The notes beneath the pieces are model-generated. The model did no database searches and was not told where the DNA came from. It saw only the letters and a program-made list of their open reading frames with translations. A stretch of 57,778 nucleotides of DNA from a virus: IMG/VR virus record IMGVR_UViG_3300034143_000002; one strand, written 5' to 3'. Below are positions 12,036 to 57,778 of the stretch, piece by piece; position 1 is the first letter of the stretch; every line of letters starts with the position of its first letter. The translations under genes and the position numbers were made by a program.

Positions 12036-12037
12036 AT

Positions 12038-21856: not shown

Positions 21857-22024
21857 TTAATTGAGGCTAATGGACATCCAGAGACGTTCATCAACGATCT
21901 GCTCAACGCTCATTTCGCTTCGACAGTCGCCACAATCGCAGACATAGCCGGTTTTCCATGCAATCTCCTGCATCGCACCGCACACTCGGCAGTAGAGTTT
22001 AAGTCTCCGAAACCCGTTGCTCAT
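21857..22024 (-). CDS. Small zinc-ribbon protein (55 aa)
   Basis: ORF track 21857..22198 overlaps the portal gene. Internal ATG 22024 follows AAGGGAG. CRVCG...CDCGDC. Confidence 0.4.
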   Translation of the reverse strand: MSNGFRRLKLYCRVCGAMQEIAWKTGYVCDCGDCRSEMSVEQIVDERLWMSISLN

Positions 22025-31597: not shown

Positions 31598-32968
31598 TTA
31601 TGCTGCGCGCTCGTCCTCTTCCGCCACTGACCGCGGGGCTTGTTGAGATTCCCGTGCAGCGAGCAGCGCGGCTGAAGGATTTTGTTTATGATCAACCAGT
31701 ATCTTCTGGACTGTGGACATGGCCACCTCTCGATCACCCAGTGCATCGGCAAAACTATTCGTCAGGCTGGCCTCAGCCTGCGGGTAAAAACGCTTGAACA
31801 GACGCTCACATTGTTCGCGCGTGGCATGCTTGAATTCGATCTTCACATCCACACGCCCATCTCGGATCAGTCGACTATTTAGGCGGTCGAGATGATTCGT
31901 CGTCATAAAGACCATGCAGCCCTCCCGGGCCGTAATGCCATCGAGAGCCTGTAATAATCCTTGAAAGGTCACGCTGTGGTATGAATCCGCGGAGATAACC
32001 CGCTCACCGCTGACAGCAGCATCCACTTCTTCGATCAGGACTATGCTGCCTGGAGGTACGGCGATCAACAATTCATTGAGCCGCTCATCGGTCATCATCG
32101 TCCCGCCCACATTGAGAATATAGAGGGGGATATTGAACTCATGAGCGATGGCTTCGATGATCGAAGTCTTGCCCGAGCCCATGACGCCGTGCAGCAGATA
32201 GCCGCGCCGGTAAGGAATGCCGAGCGAGCCGTACCATTGGCGTGATTCAAGGAACTCCCGCACGTCCTCAGTCAGTTTCTCCAGGATAGAGCTGGGGAAG
32301 ACGAGGCTTGCGAAGGTGCGCCGGTTGATCTTTGCCAGCCGGACCCATTGGCCGTAGTTTGAACTGTATATCTCGCAGCGGCCCCGCGTGGCATCAATCG
32401 TGCATTGGCGCGCCGCCTCTAAAAGCTCGCGCATCCGCTCCTGGCGACGACCGAACATGCGGATATGAAAATATTCAATCACGGGCCCGCGCAGAGCTTC
32501 CTGAGTGGCCTCCATCGCATCCTTGCGTACTCGCCAGAGCCAGACTCGGCGGCCACGGAATCGGAAAATATGATGTCCGGGCGCTGGGGTGAAGAGGATG
32601 CGTGGGACAATGCGTTGCGTGGAATTGTGTGGCGTGTGTTGATTGAGCGCCCGTTCCTCGCTGTGCTTCATCTGGGCCGTGAGCGACCGACAGCGTAGGC
32701 TATAAGGATGCTTATCCAAAAACAGGGCGACACTGTCAAAGAGCGGATCGTTATTTATGATGTCAACTTGAATGATTATCTGGCGCTTGAGCCATGACCA
32801 AAACGCCCTCGGTGTGTTCCGACTCAAGGCGACGAGGCTGGTAGTGATGATGAGTAGAATGCCGCCTGAGACGATCTGGCTTTCAAGTGTCTGGCGGAGA
32901 TGCGCAATAAGTTGCTGCCACATTTCAAATTTCCTCGGAGGAGCTTGACCGCTCTCTAAATAAAGCAC
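31598..32968 (-). CDS. Membrane-anchored AAA+ ATPase, BCS1-like
   Basis: TM GGILLIITTSLVAL. YRRGYLLHGVMGSGKTS (Walker A), IVLIEEVDAA (Walker B), MVFMTTNHLDRLNSRLIRDGRVDVKIEF (sensor/Arg finger region). Start overlaps the helicase stop (TAGTG). Confidence 0.8.
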   Translation of the reverse strand: MLYLESGQAPPRKFEMWQQLIAHLRQTLESQIVSGGILLIITTSLVALSRNTPRAFWSWLKRQIIIQVDIINNDPLFDSVALFLDKHPYSLRCRSLTAQMKHSEERALNQHTPHNSTQRIVPRILFTPAPGHHIFRFRGRRVWLWRVRKDAMEATQEALRGPVIEYFHIRMFGRRQERMRELLEAARQCTIDATRGRCEIYSSNYGQWVRLAKINRRTFASLVFPSSILEKLTEDVREFLESRQWYGSLGIPYRRGYLLHGVMGSGKTSIIEAIAHEFNIPLYILNVGGTMMTDERLNELLIAVPPGSIVLIEEVDAAVSGERVISADSYHSVTFQGLLQALDGITAREGCMVFMTTNHLDRLNSRLIRDGRVDVKIEFKHATREQCERLFKRFYPQAEASLTNSFADALGDREVAMSTVQKILVDHKQNPSAALLAARESQQAPRSVAEEDERAA

Positions 32969-34464
32969 TACTGGTGAACATTAATCTTGAATCCCTTTTC
33001 TACTAACCCGTGAAGCCGCTTCCCGTATTGATCAAACTCTTCCCTGGTCATAATGATGTCGTGCTGGGTCGAAGCATCGGAGTGAAGGAGTCGGCCTGTC
33101 CGTTGCAACTCCTGCCTCCGGGAACCGAAGAGGAAATCGGCCTCGATGATGTGTTCCAGGTCATTGATCGAGACGCCTTCATCCATCACGCGCGAGGCGA
33201 CAAAGGCTTTGCTTGCGCGCGCCACGTCCATCCGCTTCGAAGTCCCCCCATGCACATGAGGGAGAGAAAACCGCTTGGCGATCTGCGTCCCGAAGTCAAT
33301 GGAATCGGCGAAGATGAGCGTTTTTCTACCCGGATGATAGAGGTCGCCGATTTTGATGAGCTTCGAGGCTAGTGAAGATACGATCCACACGTCCACCGTA
33401 TGAAAGTCTTTACCGAGGATGGCGATAAGAGATTTCCAGTCCTGGCCGATCGGATATCCCGTCAGCGCGATAATGTAATTGGTGCGCCCGTCTTCGCGGT
33501 AGGGCGAAGCAGAGAGGCCCATCCGGTATTTCGTCTTGAGGGTGGCGAGCTTGGAGAAAGTGGTCGCCGGCAGCCGGTGGCATTCGTCGAAGAGCACCAT
33601 CTGAAATTCACTCTTCCGCACTTTTTCGTAAGCGTTGTAGGTGACGACCTCGAGGTCTCCGCTACTTACCCTGTAGAGCAATTCGTTAAATAGACGCGGA
33701 GCATGCTCTTTTAGATAACCCTTCCACTGATCAACCAGCGTGCGCGTCGGCACGACGATCAATTTTCTCCCCTTAATCGAATCCAGTGCGGCCATCGCGA
33801 GAAAGGATTTCCCGGCACTGGTCATCCAGAAGATGCCGACGGCTCCTAGCCGCATGAACTCCTTGTAAGCGTCACCCTGGAATTCATATTTACCCTCGAA
33901 GTTGAATTTGACCTCGGGTGATCTCTTGTCGGCCTCGGCAACGGGGCGGGGTACAAAAGGGAGATAGCCATCTTCGATGAGCTGAGCGAGAAGCTGAAAC
34001 TCTTTTCCGCGAGTAATGACGCCGGAGTCAGAGCGCAGGCCGGAGAGATATGATTTGTAGTGCTCGGCGACAGGCTTGTCCTGGCGGTTAAAGAGGAGCT
34101 TGCCGTCCAGTACCTGAAGATCACCCGGAGGCTTTTCCAGCCCTGTCGCGGCTCTCAGGTCTTCGGGCACGTCTCCGAGCCAGAGCGTATAGCGGTTAAT
34201 GAGAAAGAGGTTGTAAGAGGCCGTCGCACGCTCAAGCCAGCCGACGGAGAAATCCACGAAGCGAGGCACGACGCAATACCACTCGTGGCCGCGCTTCGGA
34301 ACTAATACATAAGGCTCTTTGAGAAACGCTGTAAAGTCGGCCTCTTTAAGCTGAGGATAGTGTGCGGACGCCAGCGCCCGCGCGCGCATCCGGGCCAGGC
34401 GCAACTCTTCTTCAGCTTCATTCAGGAGCGATTGTGCGTAGGAGATTTTTTGGTAGAGTTCCAT
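32968..34464 (-). CDS. SF2 (DEAD/DEAH-like, XPB/Res-type) helicase
   Basis: WMTSAGKSFLA (motif I), VLFDECHRLPA (motif II DECH), LSASP, and C-terminal helicase motifs FGSRRQELQRTGR. Confidence 0.85.
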   Translation of the reverse strand: MELYQKISYAQSLLNEAEEELRLARMRARALASAHYPQLKEADFTAFLKEPYVLVPKRGHEWYCVVPRFVDFSVGWLERATASYNLFLINRYTLWLGDVPEDLRAATGLEKPPGDLQVLDGKLLFNRQDKPVAEHYKSYLSGLRSDSGVITRGKEFQLLAQLIEDGYLPFVPRPVAEADKRSPEVKFNFEGKYEFQGDAYKEFMRLGAVGIFWMTSAGKSFLAMAALDSIKGRKLIVVPTRTLVDQWKGYLKEHAPRLFNELLYRVSSGDLEVVTYNAYEKVRKSEFQMVLFDECHRLPATTFSKLATLKTKYRMGLSASPYREDGRTNYIIALTGYPIGQDWKSLIAILGKDFHTVDVWIVSSLASKLIKIGDLYHPGRKTLIFADSIDFGTQIAKRFSLPHVHGGTSKRMDVARASKAFVASRVMDEGVSINDLEHIIEADFLFGSRRQELQRTGRLLHSDASTQHDIIMTREEFDQYGKRLHGLVEKGFKINVHQ

Positions 34465-34493
34465 TTATCCTAAATTCATCTTTGATGAGACTG

Positions 34494-34949
34494 TCATAGA
34501 GTCAAAGAGAACATACCGTTTTCACGTCCCCTCGAAACCAACCCGCGCCGCTCCAGCGCGCTGATATGCTTTGCAATCGAAGCCTTTGAGCGGATGCCGA
34601 AATGGCGAGCAATCTGCATATATGTGGGTTGGTGCCCTTTCCTTTCAATGAAGCCTCTGATGTATTCGAGAATTTCTCTCTGTCGTTCGGTGCGAGGGAT
34701 GCCCTTTTTGACGAGATCATCTCCAGCTTCAACTTCAGTAGTTTCCGGTACCAATCTAAATAATGGACCCGGAAGTCGAAACGGCTGGTGACATTTCCGG
34801 CAGTAGACCTTCCCTTTCGGCCCGATGTACTTAACATCTTTAGGACTCCACCCCTGCGAGCCGGGATGATGCGGCGAGTGCTGAAGCGTCTCGCATCCGG
34901 GGCACGAGATCGTGACGATCAGGTCCTTAATCTCGAACTGAGCTTTCAT
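34494..34949 (-). CDS. Zinc-ribbon plus LexA-type wHTH DNA-binding protein (no peptidase domain)
   Basis: CPGC...CRKCH, then TERQREILEYIRGFIERKGHQPTYMQIARHFGIRSKASIAKHISALERRGLV. Confidence 0.7.
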   Translation of the reverse strand: MKAQFEIKDLIVTISCPGCETLQHSPHHPGSQGWSPKDVKYIGPKGKVYCRKCHQPFRLPGPLFRLVPETTEVEAGDDLVKKGIPRTERQREILEYIRGFIERKGHQPTYMQIARHFGIRSKASIAKHISALERRGLVSRGRENGMFSLTL

Positions 34950-36032: not shown

Positions 36033-37127
36033 TTAGTTGATACGGCTCCTGAGCTGAGCCTTCCAACCCCCGCCGCGCTTGGTGCGCTTGCGACGCTTGG
36101 ATTTGCCACTGGGCGGGCGAAACGGCACTCGCATCTTTTTGGCTGCACGCTTGCGCGCGGCATCTCCGCCCGAGCGGATGTAGCCTTGCGTCGTCTGCAC
36201 GTAGACGTGGCCGAGAAAGTCCCGCACGAGCTCAATGTCTTTGCTCTCCTTATGAAGGTGTGTGGCGGCGCTGCGCCTCAGGTCGTGCGCGGAGAAGTGA
36301 GCACAGCCCGCTTCCTCACCACGGCGCTGCAAAGTTTTGTAGATGGCTGCGGCACTCAGCCCCCTCTCTGTGTGAATGCCACCGTGCCTGTCTACGGGAC
36401 ACAGCAATGGGCCGGGCTCGTTCCCTCTCAGACGAAGCCAGAGGTTGATGCACCGGCGCGCCCCCCCATCCAGGAAGTGAACCGTGCGATCCCGTTCGCC
36501 TTTGCCGTGAACTCTCAATTGATGCGAGCGGGGCGTCCAGTCCGAGAGGTGCAAACGAATACTCTCGCAGCACCGCAGGCCGCCACCGTAAAGGATGGCC
36601 AGAAGAGCCGCATCGCGCGCGCCGGCAGCGGTCGCGCTCGCGCGGTCACAGATGCGAAAGAGAGCACTGATCTCAGAGACGGAGAGTGCGCGTCCGGGCC
36701 TGACCAAGTGATTGCCTCTCACTCCTTTGACATCCCGGATTTCTTCCAGTTCCTGAACCGACATCTGGTTGAGACGCCAGGCGCGGCGCGCCACCTCTTT
36801 GAGAGCCGAAAGCGTCGAGTTGATAACGCTCGCAGCATACTCTTGGAGCAGGAGCCGGTTGCGCACGTGCTCGACGGCCGGAGCACGCAGCGCTCGCCAG
36901 TCGTAGTCCATGATGGTTGCCTGATCCTCGCCCACGAGGATGCGCGCGGCCCTCTCCAGGTTGACCCGTTGACCGCGCTTGCCGCCTTCGGCCAAGTAGT
37001 CGAGGTAGGCGTTGCAGGGGGCGAAAGGATGGTTCGAGGGAAGTCCCGCGGGGCTCGAATGGACGAGGTGCAGCACGCCCATCTGGGAATCTTTTTCGAG
37101 GGTGATGTGGCCTGTTTTAACGCTCAT
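36033..37127 (-). CDS. int: Tyrosine integrase/recombinase
   Basis: LRCCESIRL (Arg), HGKGERDRTV, FSAHDLRRSAATHL (HxxR), FLGHVYVQTTQGY (His..Tyr). Confidence 0.9.
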   Translation of the reverse strand: MSVKTGHITLEKDSQMGVLHLVHSSPAGLPSNHPFAPCNAYLDYLAEGGKRGQRVNLERAARILVGEDQATIMDYDWRALRAPAVEHVRNRLLLQEYAASVINSTLSALKEVARRAWRLNQMSVQELEEIRDVKGVRGNHLVRPGRALSVSEISALFRICDRASATAAGARDAALLAILYGGGLRCCESIRLHLSDWTPRSHQLRVHGKGERDRTVHFLDGGARRCINLWLRLRGNEPGPLLCPVDRHGGIHTERGLSAAAIYKTLQRRGEEAGCAHFSAHDLRRSAATHLHKESKDIELVRDFLGHVYVQTTQGYIRSGGDAARKRAAKKMRVPFRPPSGKSKRRKRTKRGGGWKAQLRSRIN

Positions 37128-46476: not shown

Positions 46477-46680
46477 ATGACCGCGAGACAATTTGCTGCC
46501 GAGATGAACGTTAACTACAGAACAGCTCTCAACTGGCTCGACGCGGGGCTGGTGCCTGACGCTGAATACATTTCATCTCCGATTGGATCTTACTGGGAGA
46601 TTCCTGCAACAGCACTGAAGATGGAACGCCCGAAGCCTGGGCCAAAGAGGAAAATCAAACAACCGGAGGCTGCACAATGA
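46477..46680 (+). CDS. Small HTH protein (67 aa), first gene of par operon
   Basis: [31 protein letters not shown] overlap with parA. Confidence 0.55.
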
Positions 46681-47477
46681 AAGTGATCGCCATCGCTAAT
46701 CAAAAAGGAGGCGTCGGAAAAACCACAACGGCGGTCAACCTCGCTGCGGCTCTGCAATCACAGGGGCGAAAGGTGCTGGTGCTCGACCTTGATCCCCAGG
46801 CGACAGCCACACGCTTTCTTCTCGACCGCTATGGCACAGACGGGGAGACGGTTTACGACGTACTGATGCACGGCAAGCCTTTGTCAGAGGTTATTCTCAA
46901 GACTCCCGTCGGCATTCCCGTCGCTCCCAGCAACTTCAATCTGGCGTCCCTCGACCTTGACCTCAATAGCGCCTTAAACCGCGAGCACAGGCTGGCGGAT
47001 GCATTGGAAGAGGTCACAGGCTTCGACTATGCCCTGATTGATTGTCCGACCTTTCTGGGCTTCGCCAACATCAACGCATTCGCCGCCGCTCAGAGTGTGC
47101 TGATCCCCATAGAGTGCGCGCCGGAATCATGGGAAGCGGTTCCCTATCTGATGAATACCCTCAGAAAGATCATCGTCCAGCTCAAACATCCATTAACGAT
47201 CTTTGCGCTGCCGACTTTTCTTGAACGGACGAATATTGCACGGGATATCCACACGGAGATTTGTGCGCACTACGAGGCGTACACTCTTTCGCCGATCAAT
47301 AAGAACGTCCGTCTGAAAGAAGCGTTCAACGCGCGCAAGCCGATTATTCAATACGATCCGGCAGCATCAGGAACAATGGACTATCTCAGGGCTGCAAAGG
47401 AGATCATCAGTGGACACGAAACCGAAACGGAGATACGGCGCAATCAGGAAGGGCGAGGAAACAGCGGCAGGAACTAA
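46677..47477 (+). CDS. parA: ParA/Soj-type partition ATPase
   Basis: [25 protein letters not shown] (deviant Walker A), [15 protein letters not shown]. Confidence 0.9.
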
Positions 47478-48543
47478 CCAGGAAGTATTCGACAAGTTTT
47501 TCAAGAATGACGGCTCGGACACTTCCCTTCCCATGCAAACGCGCGTTGCCGCGGCTGAGCGGGAAAGTAGTACCACGGGTACTACCACCCCTACCCCTAC
47601 TACCACCCCTACCCCTTCGATACCGATTGCGCCAGTCAGAGATTTCACGCGTTTCGCTAATTCAATCGTGCGAGATGGAGTCACCGGCGGGCTCTTCACT
47701 GGTAAGAGCAAACAGGTTTATGACTTTCTATATTCGCAGACGCGTGGGTACATCACCCCCCGCCGATCAGTGCGCATTCCGATGGACCGCCTGCGCGTCG
47801 GCGCAGGGCTCGGATCAGACAAGTCGCTGCGTTCAATCCTCCAGCGGCTCAGTGCGGTCGGCTTGATAACCATTCGTGAGATCGGCGGCACGCAGGGCGG
47901 CAACGATTTTACAGTCTTCTTACCTGAAGAGATCGAGGGAGAGCAGGCGACCCCTGCTACCACGGGTACTACCACCGCTACCCCTACCACCACGGGTACT
48001 ACTTTCGACCACGGGTACCCCCCGCAGAAAGCAGTAGGGGTAGCGGTGGTGGATTCTACCAGTGGTAGCAGGGGTGCAAATATTGAAAGCGTTGAAGGTT
48101 CCGCGCCACCTAATACTTTCTTTAATACTACAGAAAGAAAGAATGATGATGATGACGCGACAGCGCTGGCCGGGTTGAATGAAGTGCTCAAACAAGTTGC
48201 AAAGGAGATTACTGGCAGGGAATTATCGCCGACGGAATCTGATCGCTGGCGAGAGCTTGGAGAGGTGCTGGCAGCCGAACTGAAGATCGCAGCCGGACGC
48301 ACCACGGTCTCTTCAGTCCCTTCTTTTCTGGCTGAGCATCTGCGCCGTCGTCTCTGGAAAGTGGACAAGCGGCAGGCGCGCGCAGAGGGCATGGAACTTC
48401 CCGACGAAGCTATGAAGACTGCACCCACAGTAGACGCCAAGCAGTGCCCGGATTGTGCAGGCTCAGGCTGGCATTACCCGGACGGAATGGAAAAGGGCGT
48501 CAAGAAATGTCGGCATGAAAACTTGAGCAGTGAAGGGAAGTGA
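47410..48543 (+). CDS. wHTH initiator/ParB-like protein (377 aa)
   Basis: AAGGAG 7 nt before GTG 47410. [55 protein letters not shown] is wHTH-like. Two Thr/Pro linkers; C-terminal CPDCAGSGW...C. Confidence 0.6.
47950..48075. repeat. Nested inverted repeats plus ACCACGGGTAC iteron-like copies inside 47410..48543
   Basis: Outer arms 47950-47961/48064-48075 (12 bp); inner arms 47971-47987/48034-48050 (17 bp). ACCACGGGTAC at 47959, 47989, 48008 and also 47572. Confidence 0.85.
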
Positions 48544-48689
48544 AAGAGCTGTAGTCTGCCGCGTCTGATAAAGTTCTTTTCACTGCTATGGGCTTTGCGA
48601 CATAAATGACAGGCGGGGAAAGATTCGGAAAGGGTAAACTCTCCTGAGCACTGAATGGTCAGCGGCTTCGAAATTTTTCACCTCAGGAG

Positions 48690-48908
48690 ATGATTATCAT
48701 GGCAACAGAGACCACATTTGATCAGGCGATTAATGATTTGGATATGGCAGCCGGAGAGGTTCTCAAACACCTTGCGGGTGGTGAATGGCCGGACGAGATG
48801 CCGGAAGATTTACCGCCTGCCGCGCAAAGCATGTGGAGGGCCTGCAAGCAAATCCAGATTGAAATGTCGACTGAAGACTTTCAGGAATACCAATCAGACA
48901 GGAGTTGA
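48690..48908 (+). CDS. Acidic hypothetical protein (69-72 aa)
   Basis: AGGAG precedes the start; ATG 48699 has the better spacing. Confidence 0.45.
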   Translation: MIIMATETTFDQAINDLDMAAGEVLKHLAGGEWPDEMPEDLPPAAQSMWRACKQIQIEMSTEDFQEYQSDRS

Positions 48909-49009
48909 GACGGTCGTGTCTAACCCTCCTTATCTGAAGCTCTCAAACTACCGCGTACAACTGCCACCTCAAATAAATTCGGGGGAGAACGGCGTGAAGA
49001 AGTGTTTCC

Positions 49010-49660
49010 ATGAATGATTACCTGTTTAGGATCGGAGAACCCGACGGCCTGCACCTCTATTTCAATGTGGCTGCCAATTCACGCAGCGAGGCAGTCCAGA
49101 TAGCCAATGAAGATATAGCTGAGGAGCGTGAGAGCTCACATCTCTATTTCAGCCTTCGTGTCCCGGATGCTGACCTGGTCATCAATACCGACTTTCGTGT
49201 TACAGAAGAGATGATCGTCGAAGAGGCGCCGGCTAATCGCGAGGTGTTATTCAGGGCTCACAAGTACCTCTCCGAGCAGGGCTATGAATACGGCGGCGAC
49301 GAGAGGGATCTATGGCATGACAGGGACCCCGACTTCACGAAAGCTATCTACACGGAGGACGGGGAGGGAATTTACGGGCTCTTCAAAGTGCATGCGTATT
49401 TCGAACATAACATCAATAATTACACCTTTCGGGTGGAAGCGATTTTGTACCCGGTAGGCGGGGCACGAATCGCCGAAGGGGAAGGGAAGCTGAGATACAC
49501 TGTCGACTTTCGCGACCGGCAGCTCTACACGACACTGGACGAGTTACCGTTGATACTTGGATTTTATGAAAGTAAGTTTGAACTCCTGATCAATGCACTA
49601 AGGCAGGCGGATCCTCTTGACGGTTTACCACTCGATTATTCAAGGCCGGATAATACTTAG
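49010..49660 (+). CDS. Hypothetical protein (216 aa)
   Basis: ORF track; no motif recognised. Confidence 0.5.
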   Translation: MNDYLFRIGEPDGLHLYFNVAANSRSEAVQIANEDIAEERESSHLYFSLRVPDADLVINTDFRVTEEMIVEEAPANREVLFRAHKYLSEQGYEYGGDERDLWHDRDPDFTKAIYTEDGEGIYGLFKVHAYFEHNINNYTFRVEAILYPVGGARIAEGEGKLRYTVDFRDRQLYTTLDELPLILGFYESKFELLINALRQADPLDGLPLDYSRPDNT

Positions 49661-50040
49661 GTCTGATTATCTGAAGCTCACTTTGACGCGCGCTTGCGCC
49701 TGATTTCTTTCTTCCCGAACAGCATTCCAGACATTTATTTTGACCCCTCTTTCTCTCCTCTTATTTCCACTTTTTGACCTGCACCTTTTTCTTCTTCAGA
49801 CATAATAAAGCTCCGGACTTCATCTCACTCACATAGCAGATTTCCCACTGGCTCTAACCTTATATCCATCCATAACAAGCAAAAATACTGACCCCAAAAT
49901 AGAAATAAAGCTGGCTGTAATTAGCTCGAATATCTGATGGCTCGGTGCTTTTCATACAGGTTTGTAGTTGGCAGGCTTCGTGATGCAAAAATATAAGCAT
50001 TGACGATCTGTAATAATATCTATACGCTTGAAATTGACTG

Positions 50041-50060
50041 AAGCGAGCAGGATTTCTGCT
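50041..50060 (-). promoter_or_regulatory. oriT nick-region candidate
   Basis: The minus strand reads AAATCCTGCTCGC (ATCCTG|C, as in the RP4-type nic core) at 50047-50053, within the small IR AGCAG-GATTT-CTGCT, ~60 nt upstream of mobC. A short match that could be chance. Confidence 0.3.
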
Positions 50061-50111
50061 TAGCGAAAAGTCACCCCGCTCAAACTCACAAAATCCAACA
50101 GGAGCAATTGC

Positions 50112-50468
50112 GTGGCTAAATATGGCCGCCCCCGTCTGCCCGAAAGCGAGCGCAGAGAAGCGGGAGCCCTTCACATCCGGCTCAACAAGGAAGAGCGACA
50201 GATCATCGAAGAGAAAGCGTCTTCTGCCGGCGTGACGCCCCACGAGTGGGCGCGCGCGGCGTCGCTGGAGCGCGACCCTCCGCCGCGCAAAATCATCCCC
50301 GAACTGAATCGCCAAGCTTGGCTGGAAATGGCCCGGCTGATGGCCACCTTGAACGGCGCGATCTGGCGCTTCCAGCCCGGTGGGGAAGAGTCCGTCAGGG
50401 AGGCCGTGGAGGCTGTCCGGCAGGAGTTGGCCGCGGTCAGAAATCAGCTGATCGGAGGCTCATCGTGA
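50112..50468 (+). CDS. MobC-like relaxosome accessory protein
   Basis: GTG start. GALHIRLNKEERQIIEEKASSAGVTPHEWARAASL (RHH-type MobC pattern). GTGA overlap with the relaxase. Confidence 0.65.
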   Translation: MAKYGRPRLPESERREAGALHIRLNKEERQIIEEKASSAGVTPHEWARAASLERDPPPRKIIPELNRQAWLEMARLMATLNGAIWRFQPGGEESVREAVEAVRQELAAVRNQLIGGSS

Positions 50469-51835
50469 TCGGCAAAATAACGGGGGGCGCGAGCTTCGCA
50501 GGCGCTCTGGAATACCTGACGAAGATCAAAGAGCCGAAGCTGCCTGAAGAGAAGGAACCGTACCGGCAGAAGCTCAAGGAGGCGAAGCTGTCGCCGGGCG
50601 AGCACGCGCCGCCTTTCGAGGCCGGAGAGCGCCACCGGGTGATCGGCGGCAACATGTCGGGGCTGACCAGGGAGGAGCTTCAGAAAGAGTTCGAGGCCAT
50701 CTGCGGCCAGCGGCCAGACATAGAGAAACCGGTTCATCACGTCTCTCTGAGCGCGGGCGAGAACGACCGCCTGAGCGTCGAGCAGTGGCAGGAGATTAGC
50801 GAACGATACATCCATGAGATGGGATTCAAGGATGCCCCATACGTCGTCATCCAGCACCGTGACGGGGCCCACGATCACGTCCATATCCTGACCTCGCGCG
50901 TGGATGTCAACGGCCATGTCGTCAGTGACTGGCAGAGCAAGCAGCGGGCGGAAAAGGTGCTGCGCGGCGTCGAGCGCGACTACGGGCTGGAGCAGACGAA
51001 GTCGAGCACGGAAGTCGAGCGCGCGGCCCCGAAGCGCGGCGAGATTGAAGTCTTCAACCGGACACGCGAGCTATCGGCCAGGATGGAAATGCAGAGCCAT
51101 GTCGACCTTGCCCTGCAAGATAATCCTTCCGCCACGGCGTTCATCGAGCGCTTGCAGAATTCCGGCATCGAGGTCGTCCCTTACGTGCAGGACTCCGGCC
51201 TCATGACCGGTATCAGCTTTCGGAAAGGGAAGGAGCTGATGAAAGGTTCCGACCTCGGGCGCGGCTTCTCCTGGCCTGCGCTTCAACGGCGCGGGCTGGA
51301 CTACCAGCCGGAGCGGGATCGCCCGGCGGTCGAAGCCGCCAGGGAACGCTCGGCGCTCGAGGAGCACGCGCAGCCAACTGGCCCGTCCACTGTGGAGCGA
51401 AACTTCGGCGACGCGGTGAGAGATATAGGTGAGCGGACAGGGCAATACCTGATCGATCAGGCCAACCCGTTGAGACCTCTCGAAAATCAGGTGAGAGCCA
51501 TAGAGGTGACGGGCCGTGCCCTCGTCGACGGCGTGACGGCTCTCAGGGACACGCTCTCCAGACAGTCTGACCCGGCGCAGCCTCAGAGGGCGGCAGGGCC
51601 TGAGCCTGACGGTCGAGACTCGATCCAACGATTGCAGCAGACCACTGGGCTGGAGACGGCCAGAGATGGCCAGGGCGCGCTCGAACACCTCAACGAGATC
51701 GCCGGGCCGCAGCGCCCGGACTCCGCTGAGCCCTCTCTCGAAGACTCACTGACCCGGACACCCGGCATGACCCCTTCACAGGAGATTGCAAACGAGGAAC
51801 ACACCATCGAACAGGCAATCGAATTTATACTCTAA
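50465..51835 (+). CDS. Mobilization relaxase (MobA/VirD2 family)
   Basis: GGAGG 6 nt before GTG 50465. VIGKITGGASFAGALEYL N-terminus. HHVSLS, and the His triad HRDGAHDHVHIL. Confidence 0.85.
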   Translation: MIGKITGGASFAGALEYLTKIKEPKLPEEKEPYRQKLKEAKLSPGEHAPPFEAGERHRVIGGNMSGLTREELQKEFEAICGQRPDIEKPVHHVSLSAGENDRLSVEQWQEISERYIHEMGFKDAPYVVIQHRDGAHDHVHILTSRVDVNGHVVSDWQSKQRAEKVLRGVERDYGLEQTKSSTEVERAAPKRGEIEVFNRTRELSARMEMQSHVDLALQDNPSATAFIERLQNSGIEVVPYVQDSGLMTGISFRKGKELMKGSDLGRGFSWPALQRRGLDYQPERDRPAVEAARERSALEEHAQPTGPSTVERNFGDAVRDIGERTGQYLIDQANPLRPLENQVRAIEVTGRALVDGVTALRDTLSRQSDPAQPQRAAGPEPDGRDSIQRLQQTTGLETARDGQGALEHLNEIAGPQRPDSAEPSLEDSLTRTPGMTPSQEIANEEHTIEQAIEFIL

Positions 51836-51846
51836 AGGAATTATCA

Positions 51847-52845
51847 ATGAGCAGTAACCTTCAATTTTTTTCAGATATCAAAACCCAGCTCTCCGAGCTC
51901 ACGAAACAGGTCGCAGCAGTGCAGACACAGCTGTCGGCCAAACAGAATGGCTCTCTCAGCACAGAGGCTATCGGCGCGCTCCTTGCACGTGAAGGACAAA
52001 TCACGAGGGAAGATTTCGCGGGCAAGCTGGCCGCACTGATCACTCCCTACATTGAGCAGGTCGTCCGGCGCATCGCGGATATGGATTCGAAGCAGACCGA
52101 GCTGGAGGCTTTCTTCAAACAACATGAAGTGGCCGTGCGCTCTACCACGAGCGAGCTGGATGCGGCTTTCGTCAAGATGCGAAAGGAAACTGCCAAAGAC
52201 TGGAAGGCCCAGCGCGAGCAGGTGCAGGCAGACTTGGGACATCTTGACGAGTTCGTGAAGTGGCTCCTGCCGCAACTGGAGAAGAACGCGAAAGACAACG
52301 TATTGGCGGTCGCCAAATGCACGAGCGCAGTCGCAGCCTGTGAGGCACTCTTAGTCAAGATCACGAAACCGGTAGAGCAGAGCATCCAGCACCTGGACAG
52401 GATTTACACTCAGGGCGAGACCGTCATTAACGAGGCTGCGGAGCGGCTTCGCAAGACGTACGCGCGCCTGCGCGAGCCCATCTTGTGGCGAGTCACCTAC
52501 ACTTTGGCCGCCATGTTTCTGATGCTCGTTTTAATGAGCGGCTTTATCTTCTGGCGCACACGGGCGGCGATCAATACCAACTGGCAGGAAATGACCGAGC
52601 ATAGCGAACAGCAGAAGCAGGAGATGAAGGGCTTGCTGGAGCAGAGCCTCAAGGAGGCCAGGGAGTCTCAGATTGATGGCGAAATCAAAGTTAAAATGTG
52701 GGATAGCATGCTCAAGAGTTTATCGCCGCAGCAGCAGGAGGAAGTGATCAGGAAATACCGGGAGCTGGTCAGTATTGCCGAACGGAAGCGGATTGACGAT
52801 CAGATGGGCGCGAGCTACGAGCAGATGAATCGGAAAAAGAAGTAA
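51847..52845 (+). CDS. Coiled-coil membrane protein (332 aa)
   Basis: Long heptad-like helices with a central TM YTLAAMFLMLVLMSGFIFW; directly downstream of the relaxase. Confidence 0.55.
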   Translation: MSSNLQFFSDIKTQLSELTKQVAAVQTQLSAKQNGSLSTEAIGALLAREGQITREDFAGKLAALITPYIEQVVRRIADMDSKQTELEAFFKQHEVAVRSTTSELDAAFVKMRKETAKDWKAQREQVQADLGHLDEFVKWLLPQLEKNAKDNVLAVAKCTSAVAACEALLVKITKPVEQSIQHLDRIYTQGETVINEAAERLRKTYARLREPILWRVTYTLAAMFLMLVLMSGFIFWRTRAAINTNWQEMTEHSEQQKQEMKGLLEQSLKEARESQIDGEIKVKMWDSMLKSLSPQQQEEVIRKYRELVSIAERKRIDDQMGASYEQMNRKKK

Positions 52846-52856
52846 GTGTCGTATGA

Positions 52857-52888
52857 AGAATTATCAAATTACGTAATTTGATAATTCT
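52857..52888. other. 32-bp perfect AT-rich palindrome
   Basis: AGAATTATCAAATTAC|GTAATTTGATAATTCT, 11 nt after the stop of 51847..52845. Confidence 0.9.
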
Positions 52889-53050
52889 GTGTTGCTTACT
52901 TGTAGAAATACTTGAGCGTTTGTGTTTCCCCATCAAACATAACTGTTATTATCGGACGCAAATAGTTGACAGCAAAAGACTTAGAGGAATCCTTACTTAC
53001 TTACACGAGTGGGCAGATTCATTATGCACGCCTATCTGCTTGGTAACGTC

Positions 53051-53491
53051 CTACTTAACCACGCAGTCCTTCAGCTCGACATTTAGACTTTTTCCATCCA
53101 CAGTCCCCTGCACTGTGGCAGAGCCGCCTTTTCTCAATCGAGCGACCGCACTCTTCTGTGAGTCATCAACAAAGCATTGGACGCTGACGATAGACATCTC
53201 CTTGCCCTTGAGCGTGACAGAGGTTGAGCCCAGCACGGTATCAATTGATTCAACTGTGCCGGTAACAAGCACGACCTTACCGTTATATCTGTCATCGGCG
53301 GCAACCTCGTTCTCGTCATAAGCGGTGGCCAGCGCCAGAGCCGTGACTGTGATTGGAGAGGCTGATGGCGACGGGCTGCTGGATGAGCCGGAACTGCCCT
53401 GCTTATTCTCTGGCAGCTTACAGCCGAGGACGAGAGCAAGCCAGATGATCAAAATAAGAGAGAGGTTGTGAAGTGGAGATTTGTGGGTCAT
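53051..53491 (-). CDS. Lipoprotein with OB-fold (tRNA_anti-like) domain
   Basis: Lipobox LALVLGC and an S-rich linker. YDENEVAADDRYNGKVVLVTGTVESI...VTLKG...VQCFV...LRKGGSATVQGTVDG...VELKDCVV matches the tRNA_anti-like pattern. Confidence 0.7.
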   Translation of the reverse strand: MTHKSPLHNLSLILIIWLALVLGCKLPENKQGSSGSSSSPSPSASPITVTALALATAYDENEVAADDRYNGKVVLVTGTVESIDTVLGSTSVTLKGKEMSIVSVQCFVDDSQKSAVARLRKGGSATVQGTVDGKSLNVELKDCVVK

Positions 53492-53626
53492 GGACGTTCC
53501 TTTGGAGTCAGGTTTTCCAAGAGCAATCCGAGCATACAGCTATTTAGGCCGATCTTAAAGCTCACGGAATTACTCAAGTACTGAGAAAGCCCCGCATTCC
53601 CTGCCCCCAGTTTACATTGCGTACAC

Positions 53627-53676
53627 CAGATAGAATTCCGCCCATGAGCTTGTTTCATTGGGCGGAATTCTATCTG
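53627..53676 (-). terminator. 18-bp perfect stem-loop just downstream of the fibre gene
   Basis: CAGATAGAATTCCGCCCA-N14-TGGGCGGAATTCTATCTG, 9 nt after the fibre stop; no U tract. Confidence 0.55.
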
Positions 53677-53684
53677 GGTGATAA

Positions 53685-56600
53685 TTAATTGGTCTTGTAA
53701 ACTGCGTTGATGTTGATAGTTGATGTGTTGGTGAAGGCAGCGTCCGTTAATGCAGTCGCCGTACCATTGTTATTGGCGTAGAGGTTGACTGTAGTCGTAG
53801 CAGAGGGCGTTGTCTGCCCGAACGTCGTGCCTGTGTAAGACGCGCCGTAGATGACCACCTCGACCGGTTGGAAGCGATTCGACGAAGAAGTCGCCGCAAC
53901 CGGCAGTCCGGTCAAAGTGGCCGTCCCTGTTGATGAGCCTTTGTTAGACAGCAGCATGTAGGCATCAACGTAAACAAGGTCGCCAACACGCGTGTACTTG
54001 CATACCTGTGCAGTGTAAGTCAGCCCCGTGCTTGCGCCGCCGAACTTGAGCGAGATCGTGCATGATCCTTCATCATAGTTCGCGAGCGATGTTCCCCCAA
54101 AGTTTATCGAGGTGGCTGCGGCGGCTCCGAGGGTTGGAGTTACCAGAGTTGCGTTGTTTGCACGGACGAACCCGCCGCCATCGCCCGTCTCGTCACTGAC
54201 CACGCCCGCAAGTTGTGCGCTGGTAGTCGCAGCAAACTGCCCCAGTGTGCCGCTCGTCGCGCCGTAAGTGGTCGTATCAACAGAGAGCGTGCCGTCACTG
54301 CCTGAAGTCTTCACAAATCCATTGCTCGTCAGGTTCGAGAGCTTCGCTATATTCTGCGTCGTGTTGACAGTGACCGTATTGGTCGAGCGTGTCAGCCCCG
54401 TCGAGAATGTTAACGGGACTTCGTAAGCGCTCGATGCCGTGTAGGCCGCGCTGCCGAGCGTACCGCCTGCTCCGACGTTCAAGGTCGAACCGTCCGTCCC
54501 CGCGATAGTCAGGGTGTTATTGACCGTGAACGTCTTGGCACTTGTCAGGTTGAATGTGCCCGTCGTTGTCGTGACCGTCAGGCCGTTGTAGGTCTTTCCG
54601 GTCAGAGCGGAAGTGATGCGGCCGTCGGCCAGAGTGCCGCTCGAAATGTTGCTCGCATTCGTCGTATCAACATTGGCGACGTTGCCTAACCCGACATCGC
54701 CTTTGACTATCCCGGTCGGCGTGGTGATGTTTGGCGAGTTGCCGAATACTACTGAACCGGTTCCGGTCTCATCAGAGATGGCTCCGGCAAGGCCCGAGCT
54801 ATCCGTCACGCTGGAGACAACGCCGGTTGTCGTCGTAACCTTCATTAAGCCGGTGGAGAGGGTTGATAGGGCCTGCTCTCCTGAGAGCGTGGCATCCGGG
54901 ACTTGAGTAATATATGTGGCATCCGTAGGCGCTCCACTTCCACCGCACGTCGTACCGGCATCAACAAAATTTCCATCAGCGTCTGTTTTTACACAGTTGT
55001 CGGGGGTCAGAGTGCCCGTCGTCGTCGCGATCTTCGTAGAATTACCGGAGATGGAATCAAGGGTAGAACCATCCAACACGAGGGAGGGAGTAACAACCGA
55101 CGTGCCGAAGTAGCCGGTGCGAGGACGATTGGCCGAACTTTGCCCGATGTCAACCGCATCGTCATCCGACGCTCCAAAATAGTCGTCAGTAACTATCCAA
55201 CGATTCAGGCCGCTGGTGCGAAAATAAAGAGACCCGCCGACGTTCGCCGTCCCGATTGCGATGTCTCTGGTCGTTCCAGAGCCCGCCGCGCGCGCCATAA
55301 TTTCGTAAGGTGTGCCATCACCAAAGGCATTGATGTCGAGCGTTTCAAAGTTGTCCGCATCATAGTACCGTCCATAGACGTGAACATTATTCCCGAGGAG
55401 TGTGCCGGGCCGCATATCCCAACTACGGTCGAAGCTGCCAATGGGAATCCCACCCACTCCGAAATATATGCCTGAGTTTGAAAGGTAGGACGCAGATGTA
55501 GCGGTGGTTGCTTGAATAGCGCCGGAGCCAACAACTCTGAGGACGCCGGAGCTTGTCACCTCAATGCCGTTGCCGCCGCTCGCCGTTGCTTTGAACGGGT
55601 TGATGGCCGAGCTTGAATTAGCTACGGCGGAAATCATGTAGCCCGTTCCCGTATTGTTATTTGTGTCCCGGACAGCAAACAAATCAGCTGACGCGCCCGT
55701 TGCCCCGCCCCATGTCATAGTGATTTTGTTCGCGCCCATCGAAGGTAGAAAATCGCTTGTCGGGTTCGCGAGCTGATCCAGTCGGACGGAGGCGTAAGTC
55801 TGCGCGCCGGTCAGGAAAGTATTCGCCGAGGCCGTTCCACTTCCGAGTCGTGCGGTCGCAATCGTTCCACTGCCGATTGCGGCAGCATCGAGCGAGCCGC
55901 CGCCTGCGGCGTTCTGGTGATTGTGGGTTGCATTGACGAAGCTGGCGATAGTCGGGGTGATGATGGTTGGGGTGTCGTTCCCCATGAGCAGCCCTGTACC
56001 TGTCTCGTTTGTGATCGAAGCCAGAAAGTTCGCGCTCGTATCAGAGAGACCATAACCTGAGAAAGTTGTTGGGTTAGTTCCCGCCGTCACTCTGCCTTGT
56101 GCGTCGGTCGTTACGCTTCGATAGGTGCCAGCCGTGCCGGTGTTCTTGAGCGTCGTCGCTAGCGCGCCGCCCGCAGTCGTGATGTCACCGGTGAGTGCTG
56201 GAAACCTTGCAGCCAGAAGCAGACTACCAGCGTCGAGGCCCGCATAGCCGCTCGCCGCATTCTTGTTTGCCGTATTTTCGTAAGTGGTCGTATCAACAGA
56301 GAGCGTGCCGTCACTGCCTGAAGTCTTCACAAATCCATTGCTCGTCAGGTTCGAGAGCTTCGCTATATTCTGCGTCGTGTTGACAGTGACCGTATTGGTC
56401 GAGCGTGTCAGCCCCGTCGAGAATGTCAGCGGGACTTCGTAATCACTTCCCCCCGACGCCGAAGAAAAGCCGCCACTGCCATTGCCTTTTAAGATCGAGG
56501 TGCCTGAAGTCGCCGGTGCGTAGTCTGTGCCCGATACGGCAGCAGTAAAGGCGGAGGTGCCGTTGCCTTTGAGGAGACCGGTCAGTGTGGCCGCGCCAGA

Positions 56601-57778
56601 GCCGCCTTGAGGAACAGGAAGGATGCCAGCGACTTCTGCTGTTGCCAGATCAACAGCGTTCGAGGTCGAGCCTGAGCCGATTACGTTCGTCGCATTCGTC
56701 GCATTGGTTGCGTTCGTCGCCGTTGTTGCGCTTGTGGCCGTTGTGGCCGTCGAGGCATTGCCGCTCAATGTAGCCGTGATCGTCCCGGCTGAGAAGTTGC
56801 CCGATGCGTCGCGCGCGACAATGGCGCTCGCGGTGTTGGCGCTCGCCGCTGTTGTATGCGTGTTCGCCAGCACGCCATTGACTTCTGCTGTTGCTAGGTC
56901 TACAGCACCTGTCAGGGAACCAGAACCTATTACATTTGCCGCGTTCGTCGCGTTCGTCGCCGTTGTTGCGCTGGTGGCCGTTGTGGCCGTCGAAGCATTG
57001 CCGCTCAAGGTGGCCGTGATCGTGCCCGCAGAGAAGTTGCCCGATGCGTCTCTGGCTACTATGGCGCTCGCCGTGTTGGCGCTCGCTGCCGTCGTCTTAC
57101 TGTTGGGCAATATCCCATTGACTTCGGCGGTCGCTAAATCCACAGCCCCTGTCAGAGAGCCAGAACCGACTAAATTAGTGGCATTGGGCGCTGTACTACT
57201 AAAGGAGAGCGTTGACACGTTAGAGACCGGCGCGGAGGCCGTCATCATCTGCCCTTCTGTCGGCTGGATATTCGGAAGAAGGTAGACCGTGGAAGTCGTG
57301 ACAGAGGGAGGGGCTGATAGCCCTACATAGTTTGAGCCGCCGCCGCTTGTGTCCTGAATGAACCTTATCTGAGCGGCTGAGCCACTATTGCCGAGAACAA
57401 AATTCCCGCCCGAATACTGAAAGAGGGATTCGGCAATAGTGGTTGAGCCCGCCCCACCTGTGAAGTATGGGAAGCGATTCGTCAGGATCGTCGTCGTGAC
57501 GGTCGCCTTGCTGTTCAGCTGAGTTTGAGCATTTGAAGAGAGCCCGGCGATATTCAGAAAGTCTGTTGCGCTGGGAGTGGATTCGCCTTTGTAAGCGTTG
57601 GCGCTCGTAGCTGTAGTCGCGTTCGTCGCCGTTGTTGCGCTGGTGGCCGTTGTGGCCGTCGAAGCATTGCCGCTCAAGGTGGCCGTGATCGTGCCCGCAG
57701 AGAAGTTGCCCGATGCGTCTCTGGCTACTATGGCGCTCGCCGTGTTGGCGCTCGCTGCCGTCGTCTTACTGTTGGGCA
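53685..57778 (-). CDS. Tail fibre, main part (open to window end; ORF-track TTG 57677 is not the real start)
   Basis: 1330+ aa, Thr/Ser/Gly/Ala-rich. Repeats GSGSLTGAVDLATAEVNG.L.N..TTAASANTASAIVARDASGNFSAGTITATLSGNASTATTATSATTATNAT x3 and EVPLTFSTGLTRSTNTVTVNTTQNIAKLSNLTSNGFVKTSGSDGTLSVDTTTY x2. Confidence 0.8.
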   Translation of the reverse strand, partial: PNSKTTAASANTASAIVARDASGNFSAGTITATLSGNASTATTATSATTATNATTATSANAYKGESTPSATDFLNIAGLSSNAQTQLNSKATVTTTILTNRFPYFTGGAGSTTIAESLFQYSGGNFVLGNSGSAAQIRFIQDTSGGGSNYVGLSAPPSVTTSTVYLLPNIQPTEGQMMTASAPVSNVSTLSFSSTAPNATNLVGSGSLTGAVDLATAEVNGILPNSKTTAASANTASAIVARDASGNFSAGTITATLSGNASTATTATSATTATNATNAANVIGSGSLTGAVDLATAEVNGVLANTHTTAASANTASAIVARDASGNFSAGTITATLSGNASTATTATSATTATNATNATNATNVIGSGSTSNAVDLATAEVAGILPVPQGGSGAATLTGLLKGNGTSAFTAAVSGTDYAPATSGTSILKGNGSGGFSSASGGSDYEVPLTFSTGLTRSTNTVTVNTTQNIAKLSNLTSNGFVKTSGSDGTLSVDTTTYENTANKNAASGYAGLDAGSLLLAARFPALTGDITTAGGALATTLKNTGTAGTYRSVTTDAQGRVTAGTNPTTFSGYGLSDTSANFLASITNETGTGLLMGNDTPTIITPTIASFVNATHNHQNAAGGGSLDAAAIGSGTIATARLGSGTASANTFLTGAQTYASVRLDQLANPTSDFLPSMGANKITMTWGGATGASADLFAVRDTNNNTGTGYMISAVANSSSAINPFKATASGGNGIEVTSSGVLRVVGSGAIQATTATSASYLSNSGIYFGVGGIPIGSFDRSWDMRPGTLLGNNVHVYGRYYDADNFETLDINAFGDGTPYEIMARAAGSGTTRDIAIGTANVGGSLYFRTSGLNRWIVTDDYFGASDDDAVDIGQSSANRPRTGYFGTSVVTPSLVLDGSTLDSISGNSTKIATTTGTLTPDNCVKTDADGNFVDAGTTCGGSGAPTDATYITQVPDATLSGEQALSTLSTGLMKVTTTTGVVSSVTDSSGLAGAISDETGTGSVVFGNSPNITTPTGIVKGDVGLGNVANVDTTNASNISSGTLADGRITSALTGKTYNGLTVTTTTGTFNLTSAKTFTVNNTLTIAGTDGSTLNVGAGGTLGSAAYTASSAYEVPLTFSTGLTRSTNTVTVNTTQNIAKLSNLTSNGFVKTSGSDGTLSVDTTTYGATSGTLGQFAATTSAQLAGVVSDETGDGGGFVRANNATLVTPTLGAAAATSINFGGTSLANYDEGSCTISLKFGGASTGLTYTAQVCKYTRVGDLVYVDAYMLLSNKGSSTGTATLTGLPVAATSSSNRFQPVEVVIYGASYTGTTFGQTTPSATTTVNLYANNNGTATALTDAAFTNTSTININAVYKTN
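54263..54426. repeat. 164-bp direct repeat, copy 1 (2 mismatches to 56279-56442)
   Basis: Read directly; encodes the EVPLTFSTGL...VDTTTY module. Confidence 0.9.
56279..56442. repeat. 164-bp direct repeat, copy 2
   Basis: Read directly. Confidence 0.9.
56947..57109. repeat. Internal copy of the terminal repeat (163 nt identical to 57616-57778)
   Basis: Read directly. Diverges from the copy at 1-127 only after position 57109/127. Confidence 0.9.
57652..57778. repeat. Terminal direct repeat, copy 2
   Basis: Identical to 1-127. Confidence 0.95.

Follow-up and report, generated by a model that had tools for sequence, protein, structure and literature searches.

The closest described relatives of the transfer functions considered here are those of the IncP plasmids RP4 and R751 (TraJ-TraI) and of Ti plasmids (VirD2 and the border repeats), which comprise a relaxase of family PF03432 with an N-terminal tyrosine and a histidine motif, and a nick core ATCCTG/C (the slash marks the cut) with an inverted repeat immediately 5′ to it on the nicked strand (PMC3772185). 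For MOBP systems the nick region has been defined by experiment as ATCCTG, cut before the next C or T, with the inverted repeat immediately 5′, and the extended consensus is (C/T)ATCCTG(C/T) (PMC3772185). Pairs of a NikA-like ribbon-helix-helix (RHH) protein and a relaxase are likewise found in R64 (NikA/NikB) and in small MobC-relaxase plasmids of Proteobacteria and Cyanobacteria. In the RP4-type gene order a small DNA-binding accessory gene is located directly upstream of the relaxase gene, the operon is read away from the origin of transfer (oriT), the inverted repeat lies on the relaxase-operon side and the mobilization (mob) genes are the last to transfer. Here we describe a cassette of this kind, composed of a candidate oriT, mobC, a relaxase gene and a third gene designated g3, in the viral record IMGVR_UViG_3300034143_000002 of IMG/VR, a stretch of 57,778 nucleotides that is referred to as a whole as the window. 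A preliminary description made from the sequence had placed a mobilization module inside a tailed-phage genome, and the protein domains, catalytic motifs, conserved oriT element, virion genes and circular closure of the contig all agree with it.

In comparison with RP4/R751, the relaxase of the window is only a weak match to TraI_MobP_relax (77 bits against a cut-off of 250), the nick core has an A on its 5′ side, the base of the hairpin is 4-5 nt from the predicted nick, and TraK, TraH, a type IV coupling protein (T4CP) and a type IV secretion system (T4SS) are missing from the window. We know of no counterpart of g3 in the RP4 and VirD2 systems. The R64-type and MobC plasmids show low identity to the window and lack both the C-terminal half of its relaxase and g3; the probable host of the window belongs to the Acidobacteria and its replicon is a phage. 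Elements of Pyrinomonadaceae resembling plasmids or integrative mobilizable elements (IMEs), among them L003, L004/L070, L067, L068 and L072/L073, contain the same four-part cassette (p72-like gene, oriT, mobC-relaxase pair, g3), with relaxases 53-61% identical to that of the window in most of them and ~85% identical in L072/L073; genes for ParA, a tetratricopeptide repeat (TPR) protein and a 67-aa protein are also common to both. Those elements carry toxin-antitoxin, TIR/NACHT and insertion sequence (IS) cargo and no virion genes, whereas the window is a tailed phage.

Published surveys agree with the preliminary description that phages and phage-plasmids seldom carry relaxases (PMC10123127, PMC10879196). 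Ares-Arroyo et al. found conjugation-related elements in 6 of 222 E. coli phage-plasmids, ~175 kb in size and suspected to be cointegrates or artefacts, and by their account phage-plasmids yielded no oriTs (PMC10123127). According to Pfeifer and Rocha mob genes and oriT are absent from all P1-like phage-plasmids except two, and are frequent in plasmids descended from phage-plasmids after phage-gene loss (PMC10879196); a 2025 preprint describes conjugation-related domains as merely sporadic in phage-plasmids. The phage-plasmids with mob or oriT combine phage genes, partition genes and conjugation determinants, as the window does (PMC10879196, PMC10123127), and the window differs from them in its compact size (57.65 kb), its apparently complete virion module, its integrase and its uncultured phylum. 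Conjugation-like movement has also been reported for Phi1207.3, the 'conjugative prophage' of S. pyogenes, for which no relaxase or oriT has been described (PMC4260502); it has no sequence relationship to the window.

The relaxase operon and the extent of the cassette

The preliminary description proposed an AT-rich non-coding region of about 450 bp followed by a MobC-like gene translationally coupled to a relaxase gene, and each of these elements has been confirmed. The non-coding region (49661-50111) is 451 nt long with a G+C content of 41.7%, against 55.2% for the whole window. The mobC gene starts with GTG, seven bases downstream of an AGGAG ribosome-binding site (50100-50104), and its stop codon overlaps the GTG start of the relaxase gene in the sequence GTGA, an arrangement indicating translational coupling of two open reading frames (ORFs) that both score above the Pfam cut-offs. 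The mobC product matches PF21983 (NikA-like; E=3.3e-9, 37.2 bits, cut-off 27) and falls below the NCBIfam equivalog cut-offs of MobA and MbpA. Its homologues, with 53-85% identity, are always encoded directly upstream of a relaxase, this synteny being found in at least 30 loci.

The relaxase matches PF03432 with E=1e-28 (100.6 bits, cut-off 24.6). Both motifs noted earlier, the N-terminal IGKITGG...YL segment and the histidine triad, are present: Tyr17 (IGKITGG...EYL; GALEYL) is coded at 50513-50515 and the motif H131-R-D-G-A-H-D137-H138-V-H140 at 50855-50884, residues 131-142 reading HRDGAHDHVHIL. In an alignment of 30 sequences of the relaxase family H131, D137, H138 and H140 are invariant and Y17 is conserved in at least 90%, the sequences without it being N-terminally truncated. 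Tyr17, the presumed catalytic residue, is therefore in place, although its loss had been named beforehand as a ground for rejecting the module. The C-terminal half of the protein is disordered and ends in a conserved tail. In the AF2 model the pLDDT is mostly 73-97 over residues 51-300, with a dip to 58 at 181-190; the top PDB matches of this model in Foldseek were MobA of R1162 (2NS6; probability 1.00) and NES (4HT4; 0.99), with modest TM-scores of 0.41-0.44, and a sequence search of the PDB with the relaxase gave no match. On sequence comparison the relaxase is a member of the PF03432 (MOBP/MOBQ-like) superfamily belonging to an unnamed clade outside all named families.

The database search with the relaxase returned 227 relatives, the named ones solely from metagenome-assembled genomes (MAGs) of Pyrinomonadaceae. 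In a genome scan close relatives (49-57% identity) were likewise found only in Pyrinomonadaceae MAGs, and the other matches (36-51%) came from Bdellovibrio-like and Oligoflexales MAGs. The best plasmid matches in PLSDB have 32-42% identity in the 300 N-terminal residues and are encoded next to an annotated 'relaxosome protein MobC'. Neither the relaxase by itself nor the family alignment found relatives in scans of IMG/VR, and the GenBank phage collection yielded only 12 weak matches (identity up to 36%), one on a Salmonella contig and 11 on unannotated faecal 'Bacteriophage sp.' contigs of 4-25 kb that are perhaps plasmids.

The module was initially delimited to 49661-51835; the gene pair in this interval stands, and the true extent of the cassette is larger, reaching 52920 and including a third conserved gene (Table 1). 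The limits were set by blastn against the non-phage contigs L072 and L073, which share 3178 bp with the window at 84.6% identity, the phage DNA on the flanks not being in common. The third gene, g3, encodes an N-terminal coiled-coil region, a transmembrane segment at about residues 211-238 and a C-terminal coiled coil, and has no Pfam or NCBIfam match above cut-off. Its homologues (25-78% identity) follow the relaxase gene in many loci, and a hydrophobic segment at about residues 211-250 with coiled-coil-like flanks was found in all five homologues tested.

The operon is probably transcribed from the putative promoter at 50000-50028, both boxes of which (TTGAC and TATAC) the window has in common with L072; in many homologous loci a (T)TGAC box can be recognised 5′ of the oriT element, and the generic promoter/terminator scan did not flag this promoter. 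The repeat search of the window found no direct repeats or att-like sites flanking the cassette, so that insertion by an integrase or transposase is unsupported and the more likely route is recombination with a plasmid, either homologous or illegitimate.

Table 1 Coordinates of the mobilization cassette, its neighbours and the main phage genes in the window
Feature	Position	Strand	Basis or remark
Mobilization cassette, whole	49762..52920	+	limits from DNA homology to non-phage L072/L073
Putative mob-operon promoter	50000..50028	+	TTGACG 50000-50005, then TATACG (15-nt spacer) or TACGCT (17-nt spacer)
Candidate oriT core, 33 nt	50040..50072	-	5′-GACTTTTCGCTAAGCAGAAATCCTG/CTCGCTTC-3′; conservation, covarying hairpin
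NikA-like RHH relaxosome accessory protein, 118 aa ('MobC' in PGAP naming of homologues)	50112..50468	+	PF21983
Relaxase, 456 aa, MobA/VirD2 superfamily	50465..51835	+	PF03432; GTG start
g3, 332 aa, coiled coils and one transmembrane segment	51847..52845	+	conserved after relaxase
Perfect 16+16 palindrome (32 nt), cassette end	52857..52888		just past g3 stop; conserved in L072
p72, small acidic protein	48690..48908	+	67% aa identity to gene just upstream of L072 oriT
p216, acidic 216-aa protein	49010..49660	+	between p72 and oriT; phage copy only
ParA partition ATPase, phage lineage, outside cassette	46677..47477	+	PF13614 E=9e-45, phrog_164 E=1e-53
'Initiator-like' protein	47410-48543		family search, no match
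Tyrosine integrase	36033-37127	-	family search
Large terminase (TerL)	24198-26009		phrog_2 1.5e-18
Portal	21999-23432		PF04860 6.6e-20
Capsid-like protein (MCP)	19602-20990		phrog_617 8e-6, weak
Tape measure (TMP)	4552-8883		phrog_2276 1.4e-12
Tail fibre J-like protein	1995-4148		phrog_31

A conserved element upstream of mobC as the candidate oriT

An RP4-type nick core had been noticed about 60 nt upstream of mobC on the complementary strand, with the caution that a 7-nt match could be due to chance. The caution was justified, since ATCCTGC occurs 6 times in the window against 9.75 copies expected, which is the chance level when the motif is taken alone. On the minus strand, in the region 59-65 nt before mobC, the sequence is AAATCCTGCTCGC; the motif ATCCTGC occupies 50053-50047 and is part of a conserved element. 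The mobC-relaxase pair was located in 27 independent loci and the upstream DNA was extracted; the same element is present 50-115 nt upstream of mobC in all 27, within flanks that are otherwise unalignable. Its consensus on the nicked strand is TTTTCGC-TAT-GCGGAAAT-CCTG-CTCGCT, and AATCCTG/C stands at the same relative place in 20 of the 27 upstream regions. Since the 33-nt element is conserved at the same place in ~30 homologous loci overall, of which 23 were aligned, the oriT candidate rises above chance.

The core consists of a hairpin and the sequence AATCCTG/CTCGCT on the minus strand, with the nick predicted between 50048 and 50047. The arms of the conserved inverted repeat are located at 50063-50070 and 50052-50059, beside the nick motif. 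Across the 23 aligned loci the 8-bp stem is paired in 92.4% of the cells, in comparison with 31-55% in slid controls, compensatory double changes occur in four of the eight stem pairs, and none of 500 shuffles equalled the observed score. The covarying arms adjacent to the ATCCTGCTCGCT block are ATTTTCGC with GCGAAAAT, ATTTCCGC with GCGGAAAT, ATTTTCGT with ACGAAAAT, and GTTTCCGC with GCGGAAAC. A covariance model of the element has a single strong match in the window (50040-50072, minus strand, 46.8 bits) and detected the element directly upstream of mobC in the held-out loci L067 (47 bits), L003 (36), L068 (35) and L044 (29); the score of 46.8 bits in L072 comes from an element identical to the window sequence used in training. 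Around the oriT core 46 nt are the same in the window and in L072 (100% identity); in the surrounding non-coding DNA the identity is ~80-85%. No oriT element was found by the covariance-model scan of 14 related-phage loci, and an Rfam search with the element gave no match.

The family-conserved inverted repeat is situated on the relaxase-operon side of the nick motif, and the strand and orientation of the motif relative to the relaxase operon are those of RP4-type oriTs. The small inverted repeat reported earlier around the motif (AGCAG at 50046-50050, CTGCT at 50056-60) does exist; it is specific to a subclade and was rejected as the oriT hairpin of the family, which is formed by 50052-50070 instead. 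An alternative hairpin in the subclade of the window can put ATCCTG in the loop.

Upstream of MobC on the Plesiomonas plasmid NZ_CP027855 (L002, 2490-2530) the sequence AGCAAGCCATGTTTTCGC loosely resembles the acidobacterial element (AGCGAGCAGTGTTTTCGC in L024), and the relaxase of this plasmid is 40% identical to that of the window. By this resemblance the nick-region family may extend beyond Acidobacteria.

The phage replicon and the probable source of the cassette

The replicon is a complete-looking temperate tailed phage, the host of which is probably a soil member of the Acidobacteria. The contig ends share 127 nt, giving circular closure at 57,651 bp, and in the closed circle the junction lies within an uninterrupted fibre ORF of 1688 codons. 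Besides the genes listed in Table 1, family searches identified a holin, a phage metallopeptidase, an HNH protein, a repressor-like protein, a protein with a LexA DNA-binding domain and replication-type genes (a helicase, an AAA ATPase and the phrog_26426 replication protein), whereas a small terminase subunit (TerS), tail tube and endolysin were not identified by the family searches of the window, nor was any tRNA gene found there. A Pfam scan of 47 ORFs, nearly all the non-overlapping ORFs of at least 100 aa in the window, revealed no T4CP, VirB4-type ATPase or T4SS; the element is therefore at most mobilizable and would need a helper for transfer. As regards a possible phage-plasmid state, a ParA conserved in the phage lineage is present, a tyrosine integrase is encoded as well, and no plasmid initiator was recognised. 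ParA, the integrase and the virion genes named in the preliminary description were thus found as stated, in contrast to its 'initiator-like' protein, which matched no family.

TerL has only distant relatives among deposited phages (up to 26.5% identity). In IMG/VR, TerL relatives of 75-79% identity were found, and ParA relatives of 83-86% on three contigs of 48-56 kb, one of them with a tail J homologue. The module family is present in Pyrinomonadaceae plasmid/IME-like elements, and the cassette is missing from the related phages.

L072 and L073 are contigs of 30-42 kb from the phage contig's own ENA assembly and a sister assembly. They carry genes for the 67-aa protein, ParA, a 388-aa protein and a giant TIR-nSTAND-WD40 protein, followed by the p72-like gene, mobC, the relaxase gene and g3, and later by an integrase gene and DUF3854; virion genes were not found on them. 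The relaxase gene of L072 (10001-11365; also that of L073) has a premature stop at codon 415, while the phage relaxase is full length with the conserved C-terminal tail. The 41 codons beyond this stop are still in frame and conserved, which suggests that the nonsense mutation is very recent or that the truncation is programmed. The closest relaxase, P0002 (ENA cluster-mate P0122), is encoded on a JGI contig of 1.99 Mb, a location that suggests an integrated mobilizable element. Other contigs of the mob family are plasmid-like, with ParA, toxin-antitoxin pairs, IS elements and defence-like genes. In the phage, the genes for the TPR protein and the 67-aa protein, and the one of 377 aa located after parA, have homologues on these plasmid/IME-like contigs, so the phage exchanges genes with the plasmid/IME pool.

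On the leading side of the cassette, the p72 gene is 74.6% identical in nucleotides to its L072 counterpart over 398 bp (48559-48951) and travels with the mob cassette in non-phage elements. L072 lacks the p216 gene, and its p72 homologue lies immediately beside the oriT region. The products of p72 and p216 are both strongly acidic, the ratio of D+E to K+R being 15/4 in p72 and 42/21 in p216, and neither had a match in protein-family searches. The two genes lie on the predicted first-entering side of oriT, and the transferred strand would be their template strand. Anti-restriction and leading-region genes are typically located on this side; p72 is accordingly a predicted leading-region gene, and by the orientation of the putative nick site p216 would enter the recipient first.

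Beyond g3 a tRNA_anti-like OB-fold protein (PF12869) with a lipoprotein signal (…LVLGC) is encoded on the minus strand (53051-53491), between the cassette and the fibre gene, and may act as a lipoprotein in exclusion or at the surface. Between this gene and the fibre gene, at 53626-53677, there is a perfect 19-nt inverted repeat; like the palindrome at the cassette end, it is likely to be a terminator or binding site. The fibre gene itself (53685-57778 joined to 1-~1100, minus strand) has a signal-peptide-like N-terminus and contains repeated 'SGNASTATTATSATTATNAT' blocks. The terminal 127-mer recurs within it at 56983-57109, giving a period of 669 nt, so that the assembled repeat number is uncertain. 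A BCS1-like AAA ATPase (BCS1_N, AAA and lid), a ResIII/XPB-like helicase and the LexA-DNA-binding-domain protein are clustered at 31598-34949 on the minus strand, a trio unusual for a phage early region; a homologue of the BCS1-like protein (43%) is also encoded by the related phage L054.

Two further contigs bring mob genes and phage-type genes together. L074 (ENA ERZ25039586 contig_17167, 135 kb; 1-21224) encodes an N-terminally truncated relaxase homologue, without mobC, near P2-type baseplate/tail-like genes (Tail_P2_I) and surrounded by IS elements. A T4CP (TrwB_AAD_bind, TraG-D_C) is encoded 9.4 kb downstream, so conjugative machinery exists in the same gene pool, and this locus is a candidate for the helper type present there. 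On L076 (JGI 3300044703 Ga0467034_0000941, 40 kb; 1-12567) the mob cassette is 8.4 kb away from a 1475-aa PhageMin_Tail gene, a tape measure not homologous to that of the window, with Abi_alpha and other cargo in between. L076 may represent an independent phage-mob association. An exact-pattern scan of IMG/VR for L076 found nothing, and a protein search with a fragment of its tape measure gave no match, not even to itself. Together with the baseplate-adjacent copy on L074, L076 hints that the association of phages with mob genes may recur in Acidobacteria.

Proposed transfer, alternatives and significance

We conclude, with a probability of roughly 0.6, that 49762-52920 is an intact MOBP-like cassette in a temperate tailed phage, or phage-plasmid, of Pyrinomonadaceae-type Acidobacteria, gained by recombination with the plasmid/IME pool of the host. 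That the mob cassette and the phage genome carrying it are both genuine is highly probable, and the odds that the cassette actually mobilizes the phage are slightly better than even. In the mechanism that we propose, the operon would be transcribed from the promoter just 5′ of oriT, the NikA-like RHH protein would bind the inverted repeat at 50052-50070, and the relaxase would cut the minus strand at ATCCTG/C (50048/50047) by means of Tyr17 and a metal held by H131, H138 and H140, staying on the 5′ end. As a membrane-anchored coiled coil, g3 could help the relaxosome to reach the membrane or the coupling protein, and the T4CP and T4SS would be supplied by a co-resident conjugative element. The minus strand would enter the recipient in the 5′ to 3′ direction, with p216/p72 and the ParA module first and the mob genes last. 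After reclosure of the circle by the relaxase the 57.65-kb genome would be maintained by ParA, integrated by the integrase or enter lytic growth. The identities of the genes, their intact motifs, the conserved and covarying oriT element, the phage context and purifying selection are observed, and the position of the nick, the dependence on a helper and the transfer of the whole genome are predictions of the scheme.

Several observations weigh against this interpretation. The relaxase scores below the curated cut-off of every named NCBIfam relaxase family (besides TraI_MobP_relax, 126 bits against 400 for Bacteroid_MobB and 36 against 400 for MbpB). The base 5′ of ATCCTG is A throughout the oriT family in place of the C or T of MOBP, and the hairpin of the window is imperfect, with 5 of 7 pairs formed and two adjacent mismatches; this imperfection is not a phage-specific decay, because the non-phage L072 and L013 have the same variant. 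The cassette is absent from all three to five related IMG/VR phages examined; having been seen in one phage genome only, it may be a transient acquisition. Nicking and transfer by the cassette are predicted from sequence and a structural model, and the helper T4SS for this host is a postulate.

The alternative that survives best, though we consider it unlikely, is that a genuine mob module has brought the phage no transfer route and will eventually be lost, as could happen if a compatible helper were lacking or if transfer were lethal or irrelevant. Relatives with 75-86% identical TerL or ParA that manage without the cassette are what this explanation would lead one to expect, and it also fits the rarity of relaxases and oriTs in surveyed phage-plasmids (PMC10123127, PMC10879196) and a genome only ~2 kb larger than two related contigs of 55.6-55.8 kb, a difference at the margin of packaging tolerance. 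An inert passenger would not be expected to keep three genes and an oriT intact despite ~15% nucleotide divergence from the nearest copy. The pairwise dN/dS values (ratios of nonsynonymous to synonymous substitution rates) against L072 are 0.24 for mobC, 0.19 for the relaxase gene and 0.29 for g3 at a dS of ~0.4; being pairwise, they cannot isolate the phage branch, which is a further reservation about our interpretation. The cassette genes of the phage are under purifying selection, and it is the non-phage copy that has the nonsense codon instead.

It is improbable that the 33-nt element serves mainly as an operator for the RHH protein or as a hairpin in the 5′ untranslated region of the mob mRNA, the true oriT being elsewhere or absent. 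RHH relaxosome proteins commonly autoregulate, the element follows the putative -10 box and precedes the start of mobC and is therefore probably transcribed, and a palindromic hairpin would form in either strand. Its most conserved unpaired part is, however, the ATCCTGCTCGCT block, a match to the MOBP nick core that lies on the strand expected of it, and the element fits no Rfam family; in known systems oriT overlaps with the mob promoter or operator, so that the two roles are not exclusive.

A misjoining of plasmid or IME DNA into the phage contig during assembly is very unlikely, although the data are metagenomic and were judged from contigs, not reads, and the related mob element L073 occurs in the same assembly. 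A chimera of the insertion type requires two false joins, and an ENA contig (k141_..., 54.4 kb) showed no differences from the window in a comparison of 13.9 kb that included both junctions; the k141_ names and the 127-nt end overlap suggest that the two contigs come from different assemblers, perhaps run on the same reads. Exact matches between the phage contig and the mob element that coexists with it extend over no more than 84 nt, less than either k. The cassette is not flanked by repeats, and the phage has an allele of its own (84.6% identity) with the phage-specific p216 insertion. The G+C step at 50.1-51.8 kb was considered as a sign of a foreign insert or chimera and rejected, since the mob genes are 3-12 points above their own locus in all nine mob-family loci tested; at third codon positions the mob genes and the phage structural genes have similar G+C contents (GC3), 0.75-0.77 and 0.68-0.73 respectively. 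Co-option of the HUH relaxase and its origin for the phage's own use, for example in producing rolling-circle concatemers for packaging, would recall the HUH endonucleases that start rolling-circle replication in phages such as P2 and phiX174 and would suit a cassette adjoining the partition region, yet it is equally implausible given that many non-phage loci share its architecture and sequence, that the phage has a separate helicase, phrog_26426 replication protein and AAA ATPase, and that related phages do without the cassette.

The mobilizable phage cassette that we favour introduces no new principle; it is an unusually clean example, with a compact genome, an apparently complete virion module, a complete cassette, an oriT supported by comparative genomics, and evidence of purifying selection. 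Transfer by phages and transfer by conjugative or mobilizable elements are usually regarded as mutually exclusive, and relaxases are used as plasmid hallmarks in surveys. A phage with a mob cassette would complicate phage/plasmid classifiers. If functional, the cassette would combine virion, integration/partition and conjugative routes in one element and make the effective host range of the phage wider than its receptor specificity. The stronger proposal of a dual-route element, in which selection would maintain the capacity for conjugative mobilization in an infectious tailed phage, is tentative, and we lean against it; if true, such a phage would enter cells without its receptor through a broad-host-range T4SS and then settle by means of ParA or the integrase or go lytic by zygotic induction. 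For the Acidobacteria, a phylum whose conjugation biology is almost unstudied, the analysis defines a previously unnamed relaxase-oriT family, and the 33-nt element is a concrete candidate substrate (oligonucleotide GACTTTTCGCTAAGCAGAAATCCTGCTCGCTTC) that makes the biochemistry of nicking directly accessible.

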